A stretch of 25,337 bases of DNA, taken from a virus (Duplodnaviria > Heunggongvirae > Uroviricota > Caudoviricetes). Where the stretch lies: the IMG/VR virus record IMGVR_UViG_2711768004_000002; one strand, written 5' to 3'. Made by a program: the position numbers and the translations under genes. The notes under the pieces are model-generated. The model saw only the letters and a program-made list of their open reading frames with translations, made no database searches and was not told the origin of the DNA. Of the stretch, positions 840-25,091 are shown piece after piece (the first letter of the stretch is position 1; each line of letters begins with the position of its first letter).

Positions 840-1452
840 TTACCCTATAGGTGCTACTGGCCATTCAATATCCGGTGCAGTTGATGTATCAACACGGTTC
901 AGCAACACCCGATACTTTTTCCAAGCTTCCAGCAACAAGGTTTCTTTCTCCGTTGCGATCTCCAGATCCACAGCATCCTGAAGCGGCGCTATATGCTCAC
1001 TGGCTACCTGCATCAGGCTGTTTTTTGTTTCTTCCGCCTCCCGGATCCGGAACAGTTTTTCTGCTTCCGTATCCTTCACCCAGGCTGTGCCGTTCCACTT
1101 CTGAAACTCNNNNNNNNNNNNNNNNNNNNNNNNNNNNNNNNNNNNNNNNNNNNNNNNNNNNNNNNNNNNNNNNNNNNNNNNNNNNNNNNNNNNNNNNNNN
1201 NNNNNNNNNNNNNNNNNNNNNNNNNNNNNNNNNNNNNNNNNNNNNNNNNNNNNNNNNNNNNNNNNNNNNNNNNNNNNNNNNNNNNNNNNNNNNNNNNNNN
1301 NNNNNNNNNNNNNNNNNNNNNNNNNNNNNNNNNNNNNNNNNNNNNNNNNNNNNNNNNNNNNNNNNNNNNNNNNNNNNNNNNNNNNNNNNNNNNNNNNNNN
1401 NNNNNNNNNNNNNTTTTATGGTCCGTGCTTGTTCACTCATTCTGAATGCCAT
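840..1452 (-). CDS. tfa: tail fiber assembly protein Tfa (interior replaced by the N run at 1110-1413)
   Basis: N-terminal [13 protein letters not shown] (ORF 997-1452) and C-terminal [33 protein letters not shown]...[10 protein letters not shown] (ORF 840-1079) both match lambda Tfa as I recall it. The ATG overlaps the stf stop (TAATG). Frame continuity across the gap cannot be verified. Confidence 0.85.
1110..1413. other. run of N (assembly gap or masked sequence)
   Basis: 304 consecutive n characters in the sequence. Confidence 0.99.
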
Positions 1453-4400
1453 TATGCGAGCCTCACAATATAGTTAAATGCGATGTTTTTGACGGTGTTT
1501 TCCGCGTTACCAGCAGCGTTAACGGTGATGGTGTGTCCATGTGAACCAATCGCAACAGAGTGCGTATGAGCACCAATACCGACAGTATGCGCGTGTGCAC
1601 CCGCAGATGCTGCTGTGCCGGACAGTGAGTGTGTATGGTTTCCTTCTGAAGATGATTTACCTACCCATTGGGAGGTGCCACTGGTTAATGAGCCACTGAT
1701 ACCAACCTGATTAGTCCCGCTAACTTGAGTACTCCCTGCCGGAAACATTCCAGTAGGTTGACTCCCGCTATTCGTTCTGGGCCCAGTCTGACTATGTTGG
1801 TGGGCCCCAGCTGAACTTGTAGAGCCGCTCAGACTGTGCGTATGCGCCCCGGTGTTATTCGTGGATTTAGTGCCGTAATCAAACGACGATGTGGTTTTCG
1901 TCCCCAAATCCGTACTGGATGCGCTGGCGCTGTGGGTGTGCGATTTAATGCCATCCTGTTCCTGAGACAATACGGCACGACCACTGGCGGGCTTGCCCTT
2001 AATCGTCCAGCCACGCATATCAGGGATCACGCCTGACGGATAAGCGGCTGCAAGTTTCGGGTAAGCAGATTTGTCAAAAGTCTGCCCCTGCATCAGGGCA
2101 TAACCAGACGGAACGGTATCTGATGGCCACGGGATTGGTGCACCGACTGGATAAAACTCTGCAGGAGGATGAGCCGAGGTGTAAAGCTGCGCCCACGGCG
2201 ACCAGTTTGCGTCGGTCGTATCCCGTCGTGAACGAATAAATGCCGGAGCATGAGCACCGCTTGTACCACTCCAGCCGATGAGTAACTCACCTTCGCCAAC
2301 GGCTGTCATCCCTTTCAGGTGAATGATATTTCCATACGCTGTTGGATATCCGTTGTTATACACCTCGTATAACTCAAGACCTGCTGCCCCCTGCGTATTG
2401 TCTGTCAGCGCGGCTACCCGACCTTTTGAAGCCAGATTAACTGATGATACTGCTGTTCCACCTGACGGTAGCGCCCCGATCTCTGATGCCGTTGGCTTAT
2501 TTCTGGAGTTATAGTCCCTTCGCCAGCCAGGTGAATAATCTGTTCCGTGATTAATATAGGTAAACTGGGCGTTGGTTGTTCCGCCACCGCTGGATGTGGT
2601 CGGAGTGGTAATGCGGATCGTCATCGCTGACTTTATCCCCATTACTTCAATGACAGCTCCGGCGAGATGAATATTACCGCAGCCAGTATCAGTAATGATT
2701 TTATTATTGCCATAAGACCAGGAACCCTTGCACATCCAGTATGGATGGTTAAATGCTCCCTGAGAATCCAGCCACTCGATAAACTGTGCAGTCGTCCAGT
2801 TTCCTGTTGTTGTGCTTACTGACCCACCGAAGGCACGGCAGGCACCAATATTTTTCGTAAAGGTGTCTTTGCCAGGGATATCCGCACCGTTCTGATCTTT
2901 CTGCAGACGTTTCTCAGCATTGTCATTGGCTGCTTTTACTGCCTTTGGCGTTGCCGCCAGCGTTTCAGACGTGCTGTTGGTCGCGCTGCTTAGCTGGATT
3001 ATCCCTTTCTGTGCTGTCGTTGCATCCTGTGCGGTGTATTTCCCGTTAGCCAGGTCATACGCGGCCTTAACGGCTTTTGGTGTTGCCGCCAGTGACTCGG
3101 AAGTGCTGTTAGTCGCACTACTGAGCTGTACTATCCCCTTTTTCGTCGTGCTCGCATCCTCAAGCGCCACGGCGGATGCAATATCCTCTGCCCGTTTTGC
3201 CGCTGTCTCAGCGCGCGTTGCTGCAGATTCCGCCGTACTTTTGCTCTGAGCTGCTGCCGTCGCACTACCAGCAGCCTCTGTCGCCTTCGTGGATGCCGTC
3301 GTGGCGCTGCCCTTCGCTGCTGACGCCTGTCTGGTCGCCTCATCTTTTGAAGCAGACGCCGATGATGCCGATGACGCCGCCGAACTGGCGGACGATGCGG
3401 CAGCCGTTTTTGAGGATTCTGCACGGGTTTCCGACGCTTTCGCGTTCGTTTCGGATGTCTTCGCTGCGGAAGCTGACCTCGCTGCTGCCGTGGCCTGCTC
3501 AGTGGCTTCGCCAGCCTTCGTTGTGGCTGTTGAAGCGGATGATGCGGCGCTTTCTGCCGATTTTCCGGCGGCGGTGGCACTGGCTGAGGCCTGCCCGGCA
3601 CTTGTTGACGCGGCGCTGGCAGACGACGCAGCCGCTGTTTTTGAGCCTGCCGCAGCTGAGGCACTCTGTCCCGCTGCCGTTTCAGAAGACCTGGCGTTCG
3701 TCTCGGACGTTTTGGCCGCCTTCGCAGAATTTGCAGCCGCCGTCGCCGAGGAAGCTGCGCTACTGGCGCTTGATGATGCGTTCGTTTCTGATGATTTTGC
3801 CGCCTCTTTTGAAGCCGACGCATCCCGGGCTGAGGTGGCAGCTTCTGACGCTTTCGTGGTCGCGGTGGATGCAGAAGTGGCTGCTGATTGTTGTGACGCT
3901 GCCGCATTCGTTTCTAACGTTTTCGCCGCACCGGCACTGGTAGCCGCCGCGCTTTTTGAGGACTCTGCAGCGGCAGCACTTTTTGAGGCTTCAGTGGCCT
4001 TTGTTGATGCCGTTCCTGCGCTGGAAGACGCTGACTGAGCCGACGAAGCGGCCTGTCCGGCTGACGTGCTGGCTGCACGTGCTGAATCTGCAGCATCAGT
4101 CGCATGGGTTGCCGCCTCACGGGCTGATGTGCTGGCATCGCTGGCTGATTTCTTCGCGGCTGCCGTGTTCTGTGCCACCGCGGACGCGTTACGCGCCACC
4201 TCTTCCACCATCAGCTCAAAACGGCGCAGTGCCTCCGGACGGGCATCATCCTCCGTCATGGCACCGAGAAAATCATTCAGCGTACCGGGTCGGGAATCTT
4301 CATACACGGTGATGGTCCCGGCATGTGACGGCGGGAATCCTTCCACCAACAGAATAACGCTGTACTGACCGTACTCAACGTCCATGCTGTAACGCCCGGC

Positions 4401-4535
4401 TTCATCCGGATTTTCTGAGGCCAGCGTGTTCACCACCACCGTGGTGCTGTTACGTTTTGCTTTCAGCTGGATTGTGCAGTTCTGTACCGGTTTTCCTGTG
4501 CCGTCTTTCAGTACACCTGAAATCTTTACTGCCAT
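1452..4535 (-). CDS. stf: side tail fiber protein Stf (about 1027 aa, mosaic)
   Basis: ORF 1452-4541; start taken at the third codon ([29 protein letters not shown]) as in lambda Stf. The C-terminal block ([15 protein letters not shown]...HTHS...[28 protein letters not shown]) also matches lambda Stf. The centre is Ala/Ser/Thr-rich low complexity plus a tandemly duplicated fibre-repeat motif. Confidence 0.9.
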
Positions 4536-4547
4536 ATTCACCCCACA

Positions 4548-4599: not shown

Positions 4600-5116
4600 T
4601 CAGAATTTATAACCGACACCCACGATGAAACCGTCAGTGCGCCAGAGACGTGTTGCTGTGGCGACCGTCATCACTTCCGGTCAGCACATCGTGCGTTTTC
4701 CCCTTATTGTCAGTTACGCGGATATAATCCCCGGAAAAAGTCGACACACGGCTGTAAGCCACACCCGCCATCGCATACGCGCTGAACCATTCATTCACGC
4801 GCACAGACGGCCCCGCCATCACGCTGAACCAGCGGTTACGCACGGAATCTTCATGCCAGCGGGTATCGCTGTAACGGGTCAGCTGGCGATTCTTGTCTCC
4901 TGCATAGCTGAATGACGTCACCAGCCCCAGCGTATCCGTAAACTCATAACGGTATTTCACGTTAATCCCGTTCAGATCATCACTGCCGGGAACGTTGGTC
5001 CGGGCATGAAGATACCCCGCGCTCAGCGTGGACTGATGTTCAGACGCCCATGCAGGCGCACCGGATACGGCCAGGCAAATGGCTGCGGACAAAATGGCTG
5101 CACAAACTTTACGCAT
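4600..5116 (-). pseudogene. lom: lom-family (PagC/Ail/OmpX-type) outer membrane protein gene, frameshifted
   Basis: ORF 4634-5116 (160 aa, MRKVCAAILSAAICLAVSGAPAWA signal-like N-terminus) stops after ...SNTSLAH. The conserved Lom C-terminus WRTDGFIVGVGYKF followed by a stop (4600-4602) is present immediately downstream in a different frame. 4600-5116 is 517 nt, not a multiple of 3. Confidence 0.6.
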
Positions 5117-5186
5117 AATTACCTCTCGCTTTTCTGCAATAAAAAAGGCGTCATTCCTGACGCCATTTATTGGGGTTATAAATATT

Positions 5187-8100
5187 TCAACGAATACTGA
5201 TGCCGGAAGCCGCTTTTTTGGTCACAATCACCGTACAGTCGGTGATATTGCCTGCCCCCTGATTGCCTTTCTGGAAAATCTTAAACTCCAGAGTGACGCT
5301 ACCACCACCACTAGGCATATCAATAACTGCACTGTAACTACCGGGAATGGCCCCTTTAGTTTCTCTGGATGCGATTAATACGCCGTTTTTGCGAACTTCA
5401 AAACCATAACCCGTGTATCGCGTGCCTCCTGGGTTATTTCCGCTCCCCGGATCGTCATACGCTATACCGTTAAAAATAATGGGCGGAATAATAATCTGGC
5501 GGTCAAAGTTATGATCATCGCTTATGGTGACTGTAACCGTCCCGTTTGGTGTTTCCGTGTTACCCCACGTACCAGCCTGTTTCGGAAATGATTTGGATAC
5601 AGCTTTAACGAAGTCACCTCTGACCTGAGTCGCCTCCAGCATGCCCTTAATCGTACAGTTTTCATTTACCGTGACATTGTTGAGCGTCCCGGCGTTCGCA
5701 TTCACACTGCCACTGATATCCGCATTTTTAGCGGTCAGCTTTCCGTCCGGAGTCAGGGAAAATGCCGATGGATTTCCACCGCTGGTAATGGTGGGGGCCG
5801 TCAGGCGTTTCAGGAACACGTCGTTCATGAATATCTGATCGCCCTGACCAACAAACATCGGTTTTGTGTTGCCATTCGCAGGATTAACCATCGCAATCCT
5901 GTCCGCCGCCAGCAGCACCTGACTCTGCATGCCGTCAGGGGTGTTCTCAATACCGGCACCAATACCCGCGATATAAAGGCGTCCGTCCTGCATCTGCTGC
6001 AGCTTCACAGCCCACATGCTGTTCAGGTTATTATTTGTATCAACCTGAACCTTCTGTATCTGCTGAATTGCCGCACTCTGGTCTTCCAGTTTCTTATTGA
6101 CGGTCTGCGTGATTTCATTGCTGACATCCGTAATGGACGTCCTGATTTCAGCCAGGTCAGGCGCAAGCTGACCGTTATCAATCTGCGTCCACAGCTCCTG
6201 AGCCAGATGGGTTTTCCCTATCTCGCCTTTGAAAAAATCCAGATAACCGGATGCATCATCACTCGGCTGACCAACAGCCTCCACGAATGCCGATTTGCCA
6301 ACGGTGTTCACACTGCGGATATAAAAGTAATAATCATGGCCCGGTTTGATATTGATACTGGCGGCTATCCAGTACAGCGCCGTGCCAAGATAGCGTGCTG
6401 TGGTTTCAACCTGCCTGATATCCGCAATCCGCTTTTCCGAGAACCAGAACTCAAACTGTACCGTCGGATCATAAACCGCAAGATGCGGCGTGGCGGTTAT
6501 CTGAAAATAGCCCGGCGTCAGCTCAATCCGCGACAGCGCTGCCGGTGCGGCAATCCGGAACGATACCGACGCCGGATCGCCCTGCTGCCCCCACGCATTT
6601 ACTGCCCGGACTGTCAGCCTGTAGTTCCCCAGCGCCAGTTGTGTGAAGCGGTAAGTGGTTTCCGTCGTCCGGGCCGTGCTGACCAGCCGCTCACTGCCGT
6701 CATCCGCTGTTACGGTCAGACGGAGCAGGAAGCTCACGCCCTTCACCACCTTCGGCGTGTCCCAGCGCGCCAGCACCTGATATTCCCCGCTGTCTGCGGT
6801 GACTTCGGCAGTCAGGTGCTGCACCGCTGGCGGCGTGACACCATTCACCGTGCCGCTCTGGTCGCCGTCAAAGTGCGCCCCGTTATCCACGATGGCTTCT
6901 TTTTCCGGCACATGCTGCACGGCGGTGATGGCATACGTGCCGTCGTCGTTCTCACGGATACTCACGCAGCGGAACAATCGCTGGTGCAGCGTCGGCAGCT
7001 TCAGCCCCCACACGCTGTATTCAGCAACACCGTCAGGAACACGGCTCACTTTTACCTTCACGCCGTCGGTGACGGACTGGACCTCCACGCTGACCGGATT
7101 CCCCTGCCCGTCAACCAGGCTTATCAGCGTGGTGCCGGAGGATGGCAGCGTGATTTCACGGTCGAGCGTCAGCGTCCGGGTCTGGCTGTTCACCGCCAGC
7201 ACGCGCCCGCCGGTGCGGATACCGGCATAGTCATCATCGCAGATTTCAATGACATCGCCCGGTACATGACGAAGCCCTTCAGCACCCACGCTGAAATCCA
7301 CGGTCTGCGTCTCCAGCAGTTCCGTTTTAATCAGCCACAGCCCGGCGCGGTGTGCCTGCCCCCGGCTGGTACAGCCAAAGGCATCCATCTTCGTGACGTT
7401 ACGACCGTAACGGACAATGGCCTGCGTATCCTCCACAAGCTCTGTCGCCGTCTCCCAGCCGTTATCCGGGTCAATCCAGTTCACCTCAACGGCATTATGG
7501 CGGTCTTTCAGGGCGCTGAAACTGTAGCGGAACGGCGCGCCATCATCCGGCATCACCACATTACTGCGGTTATAGGCCCACACCTTATCCGACTGTCGGT
7601 CCTGCACGAACGTCAGCGTCTGCCCGTTCCATACCGGCATACAGCGCATCGCCGAGCAGAAATCACTGAGCACATCCCACGCCTTGCGCTGTGTGGTCAG
7701 CCAGGCATTACAGGTGATGCGCGGCTCCGTGCTGCCAAAGCCGTCCGGCACCGACTGGTCACAGTACTGGCCGATGACATACAGCGCCCATTTATCCACA
7801 TCTGCCGCACCAAGACGTTTCCCCATGCCATAGCGCGGATGGGTCAGCATATCCCACAGACACCAGGCCATGTTGTTGCTGTATGCCGGTTTTAACGTTC
7901 CGTCCCAGATACCGCTGTATTGCCGCGTCTGCGGATTATAGTTCGACGGCACCTGCAGAATGCGCCCGCGAAGATGATAATTACGGCTCACCTGCTGGCT
8001 GCCGAACTGCTCCGAATCCACCTGTACGCCGACCAGTGCCGTGTTCGGGTAGCACTGTTTCACATCGATGATTTCGGTGTATGACGACCAGAGCGTTTTG

Positions 8101-8686
8101 TTCTGCAGCTGGTCTGTGGTGCTGTCCGGCGTCATTCTGCGCATCCGGATANNNNNNNNNNNNNNNNNNNNNNNNNNNNNNNNNNNNNNNNNNNNNNNNN
8201 NNNNNNNNNNNNNNNNNNNNNNNNNNNNNNNNNNNNNNNNNNNNNNNNNNNNNNNNNNNNNNNNNNNNNNNNNNNNNNNNNNNNNNNNNNNNNNNNNNNN
8301 NNNNNNNNNNNNNNNNNNNNNNNNNNNNNNNNNNNNNNNNNNNNNNNNNNNNNNNNNNNNNNNNNNNNNNNNNNNNNNNNNNNNNNNNNNNNNNNNNNNN
8401 NTTTCACTTCCGTACCCAGCACCGTCTCGGAGCCGGAGGATTCAAATCCCTCCGGCGGTGACTGCTCCTGCTCACCTGCCCGGAACACCACCGTGACGCC
8501 GGAGATGTTGGTATTCCCCTCACTGTCCAGCACCGGCGTACTGTTCAGCAGCACGCTTTTTAATCCATCCACCGGACCTTCAACCGGCCCTTCGCTGATG
8601 GCATCGATCACACTCAGCAGCTGCGTGGACTTCAGGTTGTCCTTCGCTTCGCGCGGGGTATGCCCCTTACTGCTGCCTTTACCCAT
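5187..8686 (-). CDS. J: tail tip / host specificity protein J (central tail fibre); spans the N run at 8152-8401
   Basis: N-terminal ORF 8132-8686 ([34 protein letters not shown]...) and the 985-aa ORF 5187-8144 both match lambda J as I recall it over most of their length. The last few hundred residues differ from lambda. Total length and frame across the gap are unverifiable. Confidence 0.9.
8152..8401. other. run of N (assembly gap or masked sequence)
   Basis: 250 consecutive n characters in the sequence. Confidence 0.99.
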
Positions 8687-8746
8687 TCGTCATGCTCCAT
8701 AAACGATAAAACCGCCCGGAGGCGATTTCACATAAAACATTTTGCA

Positions 8747-9418
8747 TCAGCGACCAATCACCACAACCTGACCACCGTCCCCTTCGTCTGCCGTGCTGAT
8801 CTCCTGAGATACCACACGTGACCCCACGCGCATTTCACCATACAGAACAGGCATAACATTGCCCTGGGCAACCATGTTATCCAGTGAGGAGAAATAGGTG
8901 TTCTGCTTACCGTTATCCGTTGTCTGTGTGCGGGGAGTTCTGGCTTTCGGTGCCAGCATCTGAGCCACACCGCCGAGCACCATACTGGCACCGAGAGAAA
9001 ACAGAATGCCGGTCATACCACCGGCACCAATGGCAGCCCCCCATGCTGCAAGGGTGGCTCCGGCGGTAAAGAATGATCCGGCAATGGCGGCTGCTCCCAG
9101 GACAATCTGGAATACACCACCTGACTTGGCCCCGGCGACTCTGGGAACAATATGAATCACAGCGCCGTCAGGCAGAGCCTCATGTAACTGTGCCGTTAAT
9201 CCGGACGTGCTAACATCCTGCCCGGCAATACGCACCTGATACCAGCCGTCGCTCAGCTTCTGACGAAACGCAGGGAGCTGTGTGGCCATCGCCCGGATGG
9301 CTTCGGCACCCGTTTTCACACGAAGGTCGATGCGGCGGCCAAATCGTTGCAAATCCCCGTAAAGGCAGATGCGTGCCATGCCCGGTGACGCCAGAGGGAG
9401 TGTGTGCGTCGCTGCCAT
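8747..9418 (-). CDS. I: tail tip assembly protein I
   Basis: 223-aa ORF matching lambda I in length and position. Overlaps the 3' end of K by 103 nt, as in lambda. Confidence 0.9.
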   Translation of the reverse strand: MAATHTLPLASPGMARICLYGDLQRFGRRIDLRVKTGAEAIRAMATQLPAFRQKLSDGWYQVRIAGQDVSTSGLTAQLHEALPDGAVIHIVPRVAGAKSGGVFQIVLGAAAIAGSFFTAGATLAAWGAAIGAGGMTGILFSLGASMVLGGVAQMLAPKARTPRTQTTDNGKQNTYFSSLDNMVAQGNVMPVLYGEMRVGSRVVSQEISTADEGDGGQVVVIGR

Positions 9419-10763: not shown

Positions 10764-11092
10764 CAGTTCACCACCTGTTCAAACTCTGCGCTGAACTCAA
10801 CACGCAGCATACTGACCCGCGACGACCATTTTGCGCAGGTCACCTTTATCTGCCGCCACTCATAAGGCGGCGTCCACAGAAAGGCTTTCCAGCCCCCGTG
10901 CTCTTCCAGAAACGACTCCAGTACCATGGCCTCCTCACGGGGGACAGAAAGCGTCACGCTGTACGTTTTCAGGTTGGCATTCAGCCCGGCAGGCGCTCGC
11001 TGGGAATAGCCATCACCAAAGCGCACCTTTCTTACAGAAGGGGCCGAAGCCACATCCATACCGGGTTTCACTTTCCAGCGGAAGGTTTTCAT
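10763..11092 (-). CDS. M: tail tip protein M
   Basis: 109-aa ORF (MKTFRWKVKPGMDVAS...) matching lambda M. Overlaps the H stop by 4 nt. Confidence 0.9.
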   Translation of the reverse strand: MKTFRWKVKPGMDVASAPSVRKVRFGDGYSQRAPAGLNANLKTYSVTLSVPREEAMVLESFLEEHGGWKAFLWTPPYEWRQIKVTCAKWSSRVSMLRVEFSAEFEQVVN

Positions 11093-13650
11093 CGTCCACC
11101 TCCGGAGAACAGGCCACCATCACGCATCTGTGTCTGAATTTCATCACGGGCACCCTTGCGGGCCATGTCATACACGGCCTTCATCATCTGTGGACCTGGC
11201 AGACCATTCGTACCGTCGTTCTGAATCACCACGTGATTGTTCTGATTAAAATTAATGCCTTCAGCCCGCCGCATCTGCGCCGGACTTCCGGCACCGCCCA
11301 CATAACCACCTTCCGCATAGCCGCGCATCAGCCGGTAGAGATTCCCCACGCCAATCCGGCTGGTTGCCTCCTTCGTGAAGACAAATTCACCACGGTGAAC
11401 AATCCCCGCTGGCTCATATTTGCCGCCGGTTCCCGTAAATCCCCCGGTTGCAAAATGGAATTTCACCGCAGCGGCCTGAATGGCTGTACCACCTGACGCG
11501 GATGCGCCGCCACCAACAGCCCCGCCAATGGCGCTGCCGATACTCCCGACAATCCCCACCATTGCCTGCTTAAGCAGAATTTCTGTCATCATGGACAGCA
11601 CGGAGCGGGTGAAGCTGCGCCAGTTCTGTTCACTGCCGGTCAGCATCGCCGCCATATTCTGTGCAATACCATCAAAGGTCTGCGTGGCTGCACTTTTAAC
11701 CTGTGACATACTGTCCGTGGCGCTCTCTTCCCACTCACTCCAGCCGGACTTCAGGCCTGCCATCCAGCTCCCGCGAAGCTGGTCTTCAGCCGCCCAGGTC
11801 TTTTTCTGCTCTGACATGACGTTATTCAGCGCCAGAGGATTATCGCCATACTGTTCCTTCAGGCGCTGTTCCGTGGCTTCCCGCGCTGCCTGCCGGTCAG
11901 TCAGCCCCCGGTTTTTCGCATCAATGGCTGCCCGTTTTGCCCGTTGCTGCTGTGCGAATTTATCCGCCTGCTGCGCCAGCGCATTCAGGTGCTCCTGATA
12001 CGTAACCTTGTCACCAAGTGCAGCCAGCTGGCGTTTGTACTCCAGCGTCTCGTCTTTATGCGCCAGCAGGGATTTCTCCTGTGCGGACAGCTGGCGACGT
12101 TGTGCCGCCTCCTCCAGTACCGCGAACTGACTTTCTGCCTTCCACAAATCCCGGCGCTGCTGGCTGATTTTCTCATTCGCTCCGGCATGCTTCTCCAGCG
12201 TCCGGAGTTCTGCCTGAAGCGTCAGCAGGGCCGCATGAGCACTGTCTTCCTGACGATCGCCCGCATACACCTTCACGCCGGACTGTTTCGGCTTTTTCAG
12301 CGTCGCTTCATAATCCTTTTTCGCCGCCGCCATCAGCGTGTTGTAATCTGCCTGCAGGATTTTTCCGTCTTTCAGTGCCTTGTTCAGTTCTTCCTGACGG
12401 GCGGTATATTTCTCCAGCGGCGTCTGCAGCCGTTCGTAAGCCTTCTGCGCCTCTTCGGTATATTTCAGCCGTGACGCTTCGGTATCGCTCTGCTGCTGCG
12501 CATTTTTGTCCTGTTGACGCTGTTGATCTACCCTCTTTTGGGCTGCATCCCGCTCCAGGCGTTTTTTTTCACGATCATCCCAGTAACGCGCCCGTGCTTC
12601 ATCGTTAACGAAATAATCATCCTTGCGCAGATTCCAGATGTCGTCTGCTTTCTTAAACGCAGCCTCTGCCTTAATCAGCATCTCCTGCGCGGTATCAGGA
12701 CGACCAATATCCAGCACCGCATCCCACATGGATTTGAATGCACGTGCAGTCCTGTCTGCCCAGGTCTCCAGCGTGCCCATGTTCTCTTTCAGGCGGCGGG
12801 TCTGGTCATCAAACCCTTTCGTTGCGGCCTCGTTCGCCGCCTGCAATGCCCCGGCTTCATCGCCGGAACGCTGCAACTGAGCAACATACGCAATCTGCTC
12901 CGCCGTCACGTTATGGAACTGGCGTGCCATCGCCGTCAGCCCCGACGTCGGGTCTGTGGTCAGCTTCCCGAAGGCTTCAGCGACCTTGTCCACCTCCACG
13001 CCGGATGCATAGGAGAAACGCGCCACACTCTGGCTGATGGACGCAATCTGAGCCTCACCGCTTACCCCCGCCTTAACCAGTGCGCTGAGTGACTCGCTGG
13101 TCTGGTTAAACGTCAGCCCTGCCGCCTGCCCGGCTCTGGACAGGACCAGCATACGATCTGCCGTCAGTCCCGCCTGATTACCGGAAAGGACCAGCGTTTT
13201 GTTGAAATCGGACAGGGTTGAGTTGCCCTGATACCAGGCATACGCCAGCGCACCGGTCGCCACCGCCAGCGAGGTGGCCCCCACCATCGGCAGGGTGATC
13301 GCGCCGGCAAGCCCCCTGAACATGGGGATCATCCCGCCGAAGGAGTCCTTAACCTGACCACCCTGTTGCAGCAGGATCAGCCAGGGATTCTGCCCCCCTG
13401 CAAGCTGCGTGGCCACGTCGGTGAACTGTGCAGGCAGCATACGCATGGCGGCTTTATACTGCCCGACGGAAATCCCCGCTTTCTGTGCAGCCAGCGCCTG
13501 TCGGCTCAGCGACTGTTCAACGACTGCCGCTGTTTTTTTCGCATCACTTTCCGTACCGGAAAAATGACGCCTGACTCTGGCCATCTGCTCGTCAAATCTG
13601 GCCGCATCCAGACTCAAATCAACGACCAGATCGCCTACCGGTTCAGCCAT
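11089..13650 (-). CDS. H: tail tape measure protein H
   Basis: 853-aa ORF, the same length as lambda H, with matching N-terminus (MAEPVGDLVVDLSLDAARFDEQMARVRRHF) and C-terminus (...QTQMRDGGLFSGGGR). Confidence 0.95.
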   Translation of the reverse strand: MAEPVGDLVVDLSLDAARFDEQMARVRRHFSGTESDAKKTAAVVEQSLSRQALAAQKAGISVGQYKAAMRMLPAQFTDVATQLAGGQNPWLILLQQGGQVKDSFGGMIPMFRGLAGAITLPMVGATSLAVATGALAYAWYQGNSTLSDFNKTLVLSGNQAGLTADRMLVLSRAGQAAGLTFNQTSESLSALVKAGVSGEAQIASISQSVARFSYASGVEVDKVAEAFGKLTTDPTSGLTAMARQFHNVTAEQIAYVAQLQRSGDEAGALQAANEAATKGFDDQTRRLKENMGTLETWADRTARAFKSMWDAVLDIGRPDTAQEMLIKAEAAFKKADDIWNLRKDDYFVNDEARARYWDDREKKRLERDAAQKRVDQQRQQDKNAQQQSDTEASRLKYTEEAQKAYERLQTPLEKYTARQEELNKALKDGKILQADYNTLMAAAKKDYEATLKKPKQSGVKVYAGDRQEDSAHAALLTLQAELRTLEKHAGANEKISQQRRDLWKAESQFAVLEEAAQRRQLSAQEKSLLAHKDETLEYKRQLAALGDKVTYQEHLNALAQQADKFAQQQRAKRAAIDAKNRGLTDRQAAREATEQRLKEQYGDNPLALNNVMSEQKKTWAAEDQLRGSWMAGLKSGWSEWEESATDSMSQVKSAATQTFDGIAQNMAAMLTGSEQNWRSFTRSVLSMMTEILLKQAMVGIVGSIGSAIGGAVGGGASASGGTAIQAAAVKFHFATGGFTGTGGKYEPAGIVHRGEFVFTKEATSRIGVGNLYRLMRGYAEGGYVGGAGSPAQMRRAEGINFNQNNHVVIQNDGTNGLPGPQMMKAVYDMARKGARDEIQTQMRDGGLFSGGGR

Positions 13651-19774: not shown

Positions 19775-23455
<3,681 letters not shown>

Positions 23456-23481
<26 letters not shown>

Positions 23482-24001
23482 TCAGCAACCCCGGTATCAG
23501 TTCATCCAGCGCGGCTGCTTTGTTCATGGCTTTGATGATATCCCGTTTCAGGAAATCAACATGTCGGTTTTCCAGTTCCGGAAAACGCCGCTGCACCGAC
23601 AGGGGGATCCCGTCGAGAATACTGGCAATTTCACCTGCGATCCGCGACAGCACGAAAGTACAGAATGCGGTTTCCACCACTTCAGCGGAGTCTCTGGCAT
23701 TTTTCAGCTCCTGTGCGTCGGCCTGCGCACGCGTAAGTCGATGGCGTTCGTACTCAATAGTCCCTGGCTGGAGATCTGTCTCGCTGGCCTGCCGCAGTTC
23801 TTCAACTTCCCGGCGCAGCTTTTCGTTCTCAATTTCAGCATCCCTTTCGGCATACCATCTTATAACGGCGGCAGAGTCATAAAGCACCTCATTACCCTTG
23901 CCACCGCCTCGCAGAACGGGCATTCCCTGTTCCTGCCAGTTCTGAATGGTACGGATACTCGCACCGAAAATGTCAGCCAGCTGCTTTTTGTTGACTTCCA
24001 T
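23456..24001 (-). CDS. Nu1: terminase small subunit Nu1
   Basis: 181-aa ORF (MEVNKKQLADIFGASIRTIQNWQEQGMPVLRGGGKGNEVLYDSAAV...) matching lambda Nu1. Its 3' end overlaps the start of A. Confidence 0.95.
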
Positions 24002-24389: not shown

Positions 24390-24623
24390 ATGTCAACGAA
24401 GAACAGAACCCGCAGAACAACAACCCGCAACATCCGCTTTCCTAACCAAATGATTGAACAAATTAACATCGCTCTTGTTCAAAAAGGGTCCGGGAATTTC
24501 TCAGCCTGGGTCATTGAAGCCTGCCGCCGGAGACTGTGCTCAGAAAAAAGAGTTTCGCCTGAAGCAAACAAAGAAAAGAGTGACATTACTGAATTGCTCA
24601 GAAAACAGGTTAGACCAGATTGA
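24390..24623 (+). CDS. small conserved lambdoid right-end protein, YlcI/YnfO-like (DUF3950-type), function unknown
   Basis: 77-aa ORF MSTKNRTRRTTTRNIRFPNQMIEQINIALVQKGSGNFSAWVIEACRRRL.... This matches the small ORF next to cos in lambda and the E. coli K-12 cryptic-prophage protein YlcI as I recall them. The C-terminal tail differs. Confidence 0.7.
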   Translation: MSTKNRTRRTTTRNIRFPNQMIEQINIALVQKGSGNFSAWVIEACRRRLCSEKRVSPEANKEKSDITELLRKQVRPD

Positions 24624-24665
24624 AGCAATTTAGATAATCGTGCAGACTACGCCCCCTCATATCAC

Positions 24666-25091
24666 ATGGAAGGTACTACAATGGCTCAGGTTGCCATTTT
24701 TAAACAAATATTCGATAAAGTGCGAAATAATTTAAACTATCACTGGTTTTATTCTGAACTAAAACGTCACAATGTCTCACATTACATTTACTATTTAGCC
24801 ACAGAGAATATTCATCTTGTTCTTGAAAACGATAATACGGTTTTAATAAAAGGACAGGGTAAGGTTGTAAATGTAAGATTTTCAAAAAATAAATGCCTTA
24901 TAGAAGCCACCTTAAAAGGATTCAAATCAGGAGAGTTATCATTTTACGAATACAGGAAAAATCTTGCTACAGCAGGGGTTTTCAGATGGATTACAAATAT
25001 CCACGAAAACAAAAGGTATTACTATACCTTTGATAATTCATTACTCTTTACTGAGAACATACAGAACACTACACAAATATTTCCGCACTAA
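24666..25091 (+). CDS. conserved lambdoid right-end protein, YbcV-like (DUF1398-type), function unknown
   Basis: 141-aa ORF; the likely start is the second ATG (24681, [17 protein letters not shown]...). The C-terminal half ([38 protein letters not shown]) matches the lambda right-end ORF / YbcV family from memory. Confidence 0.7.

Follow-up and report, generated by a model that had tools for sequence, protein, structure and literature searches.

Introduction

The tip attachment protein of phage lambda, gpJ, is built of hub domains and a pair of FNIII domains, followed by an alpha-helical shaft, the central straight fibre (a beta-sheet prism) and an Ig-like receptor-binding domain (RBD). Four loops at the bottom of the RBD enter the receptor (PMC11101478). 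When lambda J was swapped for the 434 gene, the phage bound OmpC, the receptor of 434 (PMC3509688; PMC11101478), and the 434 J trimer has been docked on OmpC in an AF3 model (PMC12502783). The use of OmpC by phi330 J has been demonstrated genetically with complementation (PMC12502783). OmpC is also used by A8 and 1A2, two J variants from E. coli prophages (PMC11338833), and by Gifsy-1 J in Salmonella (PMC12312913). OmpC is thus a frequent target of J, being used by several naturally occurring C-termini of the protein in E. coli prophages (A8, 1A2 and phi330).

One J mutation led to OmpC use by phage 21 (PMC11336670) and four mutations to OmpF use by lambda (PMC6646904), and the OmpC alleles accepted by A8 and 1A2 differ (PMC11338833). 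Natural J proteins vary by insertions and deletions at hot spots corresponding to lambda residues 1012, 1048, 1077 and 1107 (PMC6646904). Mathieu et al. (2020) distinguished only four J clusters, which did not match host range. Here, we describe gene J in a 25,337-nucleotide stretch of viral DNA (Caudoviricetes; IMG/VR record IMGVR_UViG_2711768004_000002), hereafter the window.

Results and Discussion

Location and Domain Order of Gene J

The window corresponds to the late (morphogenesis) arm of a lambda-like prophage, the genes of which read on the minus strand. Nu1 and A lie at 21556–24001, H lies at 11089–13650 among the head and tail genes together with L and K, and I lies at 8747–9418. 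Gene J (tip attachment protein, or central tail fibre) occupies 5187..8686 on the minus strand and ends in a TGA stop codon at 5187..5189; comparison with phage cdtI gives it about 1165 codons. On this strand, J follows I and precedes lom and then the genes for the side tail fibre, which is also the order in lambda. According to the ORF list and translation, its readable ORFs are 8132..8686 and 5187..8144, and the interval 5187–6180 comprises the last 330 codons and the stop. Beyond Nu1 and the presumed cos site, at 24390–25091, the window carries AT-rich DNA (GC ca. 0.40) with two ORFs on the plus strand (77 and 141 residues), which we presume to resemble the small conserved proteins adjoining cos in lambdoid prophages.

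Pfam matches, all above the curated cut-offs, followed the order FNIII-A_GpJ, Phage-tail_3, Ig_J, Ig_J_second, Phage_Tail_Tip and Ig_GpJ_C, with Ig_J_second ending at residue 818 and Phage_Tail_Tip starting at residue 872. This is the domain order of lambda-type J: hub, two FNIII/Ig domains, shaft and fibre, and C-terminal Ig-like RBD. The anatomy of the protein contains nothing unexpected for lambdoid mosaicism.

Block Mosaicism Relative to Lambda J

The 985 readable residues of the window J were compared by BLASTP with the lambda reference (NC_001416; NP_040600). Overall, 780 of 990 positions were identical, but identity was distributed very unevenly along the length: it was approximately 97% up to lambda residue ca. 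815, after which two divergent blocks followed. In bins of 30 residues (cdtI numbering), identity to lambda was 90%–100% over 181–810, fell to 47%, 7%, 33% and 53% in the successive bins of 811–930, recovered to 77%–97% over 931–990 and was 20%–50% over 1021–1165. The DNA profile showed the same two blocks, with 18%–63% identity at 6254–5895 and 37%–57% at 5624–5205. The last 150 residues also contained several indels relative to lambda (+2, +6, +1, +2 and −6). This divergence is block mosaicism rather than scattered drift, far beyond chance, and J is a recombinational mosaic of three alleles already known in other lambdoid phages.

A sequence-only reading of the locus had described the N-terminal and central parts as close to lambda and the last ca. 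150 residues and an upstream block as different, with a conserved block between them. The residues that it quoted are the exact translation of ORF 5187..8144, and direct alignment confirmed each of these points: ca. 97% identity up to lambda residue ca. 815, 36% identity with indels in the RBD, 7%–53% per bin with a 28-residue insertion in the upstream block, and 77%–97% amino acid identity in the block between.

The first of the three parts, with the hub domains and two FNIII/Ig domains (6277..8686, minus strand), had 90%–100% amino acid identity per 30-residue bin to lambda, 434, 21, cdtI and mEp460, and 91%–100% DNA identity. It is the lambda-like part that all these phages share.

The upstream divergent block (ca. 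5810..6276, minus strand) comprises the alpha-helical shaft and the upper beta-prism fibre, the domain names following the lambda scheme (PMC11101478). Its edges lie near 6276 and 5810 in the mismatch map, and its DNA was 96%–99% identical to that of phage 21 and cdtI, with only 18%–78% to lambda, 434 and mEp460. Shaft and upper fibre are the phage 21/cdtI allele. The block is 28 residues longer than its lambda counterpart, the difference appearing as a gap in lambda in the BLASTP alignment; the extra residues would correspond to four putative coiled-coil heptads. Under the lambda domain scheme (PMC11101478), this block is the shaft and the top of the fibre and not a receptor determinant.

Between the two divergent blocks, the lower portion of the central straight fibre (the PMFV... 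region; 5619..5809, minus strand) is conserved, with 77%–97% amino acid identity to all compared J proteins and 80%–93% DNA identity to lambda. This stretch is the common ground where J alleles join. Lambda residue 964, the graft point that Brodel et al. used for natural J variants, falls within it (PMC11338833).

Class and Fold of the Receptor-Binding Domain

The RBD comprises the 143 residues from GDFVK to the C-terminus (5190..5618, minus strand) and matched Pfam PF12421 (Tip attachment protein J, C-terminal receptor binding domain). In an alignment of J from lambda, cdtI, 434 (isolate 434B; OL657227), phi330, 21, Fels-1 and mEp460, identity to the window RBD was 98% for cdtI, 97% for mEp460 and 94% for 434, and dropped to 45% for Fels-1, 41% for phi330, 40% for 21 and 36% for lambda. 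Over the last 200 residues, 185 were identical to 434 J without any gap and with the same loop lengths, whereas identity of the RBD to every other class was 35%–45%. The C-terminal Ig-like RBD, together with the downstream lom, is therefore of the 434/cdtI/mEp460 type.

When 50,697 phage records were searched by tblastn with the C-terminal 150 residues as query, 74 records were at least 90% identical. The remaining matches were in identity bands below 60%, the closest among the matches listed being 44.8%. Members of the class included cdtI, mEp460, mEp332, Ayreon, phi458, 2B8, Evi, ev207 and many Stx1a-, Stx2a- and Stx2c-converting phages.

Other assignments were considered and rejected. A lambda-type, LamB-binding RBD does not fit the 36% identity to lambda residues ca. 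990–1132 and the indels at all four loop hot spots, and a phage 21/A8/phi330-type RBD does not fit the 40%–41% identity over the domain. A8 does not carry the same allele as the window, as it belongs to the phage 21-like class, nor does 1A2, the sequence of which ends in ...SISDLLVVVMKKATAGITIS and represents yet another class. A 2026 preprint on receptor prediction was set aside as a guide, as it treats the Drexlerviridae-type GpJ and not lambdoid J.

The last 200 residues of J were modelled as a single chain with AlphaFold2 (mean pLDDT 77.8). Most 10-residue blocks of the RBD scored 83–97, and the loop-containing blocks scored 72–80. The modelled RBD is a beta-sandwich that superposes on the lambda RBD. 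The top PDB matches in Foldseek were lambda gpJ713 with and without LamB (8xcj, 8xck), followed by A8 gpJ713, in the closed state and in complex with OmpC from E. coli EDL933 (9wca, 9wcb); entry 9wcb contains an OmpC chain. Structure prediction and alignment with J proteins of known specificity, both proposed in the sequence-only reading, thus gave a fold nearest to lambda and then A8, and a sequence class nearest to 434 (94%, compared with 40% for 21 and 41% for phi330).

Genes Downstream of J

Between J and lom, a hairpin followed by a T-run (ggcgtca-ggaa-tgacgcc, then tttttt; 5141..5164, minus strand) resembles a terminator, and the homologous site in mEp460 is annotated as a rho-independent terminator. 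The lom-like gene (4634..5116, minus strand) is of the 434/cdtI/mEp460 allele and matched Pfam Ail_Lom over profile positions 1–159 of 199. DNA downstream of J was 88%–99% identical to cdtI, 434 and mEp460 and 40%–65% identical to lambda; judged from these sequences, the lom allele travels with the RBD allele as part of the same 434/cdtI/mEp460 module.

Within lom, 83 bp present in cdtI and mEp460 are absent, with the junction at ca. 4640–4645 between two copies of CTGGCG. The deletion shifts the frame, so that a stop occurs at 160 residues instead of 199 (cdtI lom, 199 aa), and the gene is probably a pseudogene. An exact search for the deletion junction in a collection of species-representative genomes gave no match.

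The side tail fibre gene stf (1452–4541, minus strand) is a 1029-codon ORF. It is uninterrupted, unlike the frameshifted stf of laboratory lambda, and encodes a long low-complexity middle rich in Ala, Ser and Thr, along with a Collar domain and, close to the C-terminus, repeats of His-x-His. Its last 350 residues were 85%–88% identical to side tail fibres of the ECOR-derived phages PhiR68_2 and PhiR42_1 and of mEp460_ev081. Downstream of stf, the greater part of the tail fibre assembly gene is masked by a second run of N (304 bases, 1110–1413).

Predicted Receptor and Contact Loops

OmpC, and not LamB, is probably the receptor of the window J, because its RBD is 94% identical to that of 434 J, a stated OmpC user. 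The original assignment of the 434 receptor, as protein Ib, is reportedly that of Hantke in 1978. From the divergent C-terminus, the sequence-only reading had proposed a receptor other than LamB, or a different way of binding LamB. The proposal of another receptor is supported at the sequence level by the PF12421 match and the identity to 434 J; the upstream block, in contrast, does not determine the receptor. A literature search for receptor data on carriers of this RBD type or related phages (cdtI, mEp460, mEp332, Ayreon, phi458, ev243, ECOR-derived PhiR phages and Stx phages) found none.

If this J works as lambda gpJ does, each of the three RBDs in the trimer would insert its bottom loops into a trimeric outer-membrane porin. 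Binding would then spread the RBDs and twist the fibre, as the lambda and A8 structures suggest, flipping the helical shaft and opening the tail tip for DNA ejection (PMC11101478).

Eight RBD residues differ between the window and 434 (S/A, Q/K, A/V, N/D, D/N, I/V, Q/H and G/W, window state first). Contact loops were mapped from the AF3 descriptions of phi330 and 434 (PMC12502783) and from the indel hot spots (PMC6646904). When the phi330 ranges were placed on the alignment, equivalents of L1 and L2 were located and that of L4 was KGNQGAG, and the indels of the window relative to lambda fell at the hot spots (lambda residues ca. 1012, ca. 1044, ca. 1078 and ca. 1100–1108). The predicted contact loops hold six of these eight differences: Q1036K, A1037V and N1047D in L1, D1078N in L2, and Q1138H and G1143W in L4 (cdtI numbering, window residue before and 434 residue after the number). 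However, all eight are common polymorphisms among 39 members of the class (S 14 and A 22; Q 14 and K 23; A 17 and V 21; G 28, W 6 and R 5). Phage 434 is therefore an ordinary member that stands inside the class rather than beside it.

Across these 39 members, frequent polymorphisms clustered at positions 1032–1047, 1077–1078, 1127 and 1136–1143 (cdtI numbering), mostly in predicted contact loops, a pattern suggestive of diversifying selection where J meets its receptor. A more speculative extension, which we consider rather unlikely, is that the loop sites S/A, Q/K, A/V, N/D, D/S/T, D/N, Q/H and G/W/R form a natural specificity code. Combinations such as that of the window (S, Q, A, N, D, Q, G) would then recognise OmpC variants of particular lineages, or a different porin, as opposed to the K-12 OmpC recognised by 434.

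Alternative Explanations

The most direct challenge to OmpC as the predicted receptor is that the RBD belongs to the 434 class, but that this allele, with contact loops differing from those of 434, uses another porin (LamB, OmpF or other) or only certain OmpC variants. The concentration of six of the eight substitutions in predicted contact loops would fit this explanation, as would the discrimination between OmpC alleles by the A8 and 1A2 J variants. In another J class, moreover, the RBDs of phage 21 and phi330 are 80% identical to each other and yet use LamB and OmpC, respectively, so class membership alone is no safe guide to the receptor. Nevertheless, the window RBD is 94% identical to that of 434 and has no indels relative to it, so that the two are much more alike than those of phage 21 and phi330. 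Moreover, the residues that differ (including the states found in 434) are all frequent in the class, and no class member has been reported on a different receptor. We therefore regard a switched or restricted specificity as unlikely. The possibility that the divergence merely reflected an inaccurate lambda J sequence behind the sequence-only reading can practically be dismissed, as direct alignment to the lambda reference gave 36% identity in the RBD and the 28-residue upstream insertion, which refutes such an artefact.

It might also be argued that the prophage is defective, that J is decaying and that the C-terminal allele has no current function. The state of the reading frame bears on this explanation. 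A masked run of 250 N lies within J at 8152–8401 (residues ca. 96–178), and the readable parts on its two sides, open for 95 and 985 codons, are in different frames; in addition, the adjoining lom carries the frameshifting 83-bp deletion. However, the N run is a mask, and its length may differ from that of the hidden DNA. The lambda and cdtI register predicts 248 hidden bases, 2 fewer than the run, so that the two readable parts would appear out of frame, and related E. coli loci are 3697–3699 bases long compared with 3701 in the window. J is open on both sides of the run, and the head and tail genes have lambda-like ORF lengths (A 641, Nu1 181, B 533, H 853, M 109, L 232 and I 223). As for lom, it is a dispensable accessory gene. 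Decay of J appears rather improbable.

Frequency of the Allele and Its Implications

The 454 bases encoding the RBD (window 5187–5640) were used as a megablast query against complete E. coli genomes. The 434-type allele was found in 2113 of 5426 genomes, almost always at 90%–99% identity and in up to seven copies in some genomes. The equivalent piece of lambda J was found in 98 of the 5426, and the five genomes among the matches listed were laboratory K-12, B and DE3-type strains. The LamB-binding tip of lambda is therefore rare in E. coli compared with the common 434 type, which corrects a lambda-centred view of these phages. Relatives named in the protein database came from E. coli, E. albertii and Shigella sonnei. 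When the J region (window 5100–8800) was compared with complete E. coli genomes, no match was better than 97.5%.

The divergent ending of J is thus an already known and very common 434-type allele; the observation in the sequence-only reading was correct but ordinary, because the RBD is of a common type that had already been sequenced. Dozens of phages in GenBank carry this allele, cdt- and Shiga-toxin-converting phages among them, and the receptor of the 434-type class has been known since the classical work on 434. For annotation, the sequence suggests that the prophage would need OmpC rather than LamB. Down-regulation of lamB or mal, which is selected in the mouse gut (PMC11338833), would accordingly not be expected to exclude it.

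Comparison With Known Systems

Taken together, the results describe a mosaic of known alleles with a 434-type RBD, for which the porin is most probably OmpC and not LamB. The closest described relative is J of phage cdtI (AB285204; BAF63351), which was identical at 960 of 985 residues (ca. 97%) without gaps, the 25 substitutions being scattered. It has the same mosaic over the whole readable length, with the same shaft and RBD alleles, and a lom-like gene comes next in both. Lambda gpJ (NP_040600; 8iyk, 8xcg, 8xci, 8xcj, 8xck) has the same domain order and fold and a hub/FNIII part that is ca. 97% identical, whereas its shaft is 28 residues shorter, its RBD is 36% identical and its receptor is LamB.

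The two divergent blocks resemble different phages. Phage 21 J (OL657228) is 97%–100% identical in protein and 92%–99% in DNA over the shaft and upper fibre block, but its RBD is of a different class (40% identity), and its native receptor is LamB (PMC11336670). Conversely, J of phage 434, the classical OmpC-using lambdoid phage, has a short lambda-type helical shaft with 7%–53% identity to the window in that block, whereas its RBD is 94% identical and gap-free, with eight substitutions, and its lom allele is of the same type. Two further J proteins with demonstrated OmpC use are more distant in sequence. A8 gpJ713 (9wca, 9wcb), for which OmpC use has been shown structurally, has a J-type Ig-like RBD that matched the model with a Foldseek probability of 1.0, but this RBD is of the phage 21-like class, with 47%–53% identity over Foldseek alignments of ca. 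200 residues. Similarly, phi330 J, for which OmpC use has been shown genetically, has a phage 21-like RBD with 41% identity over the domain.
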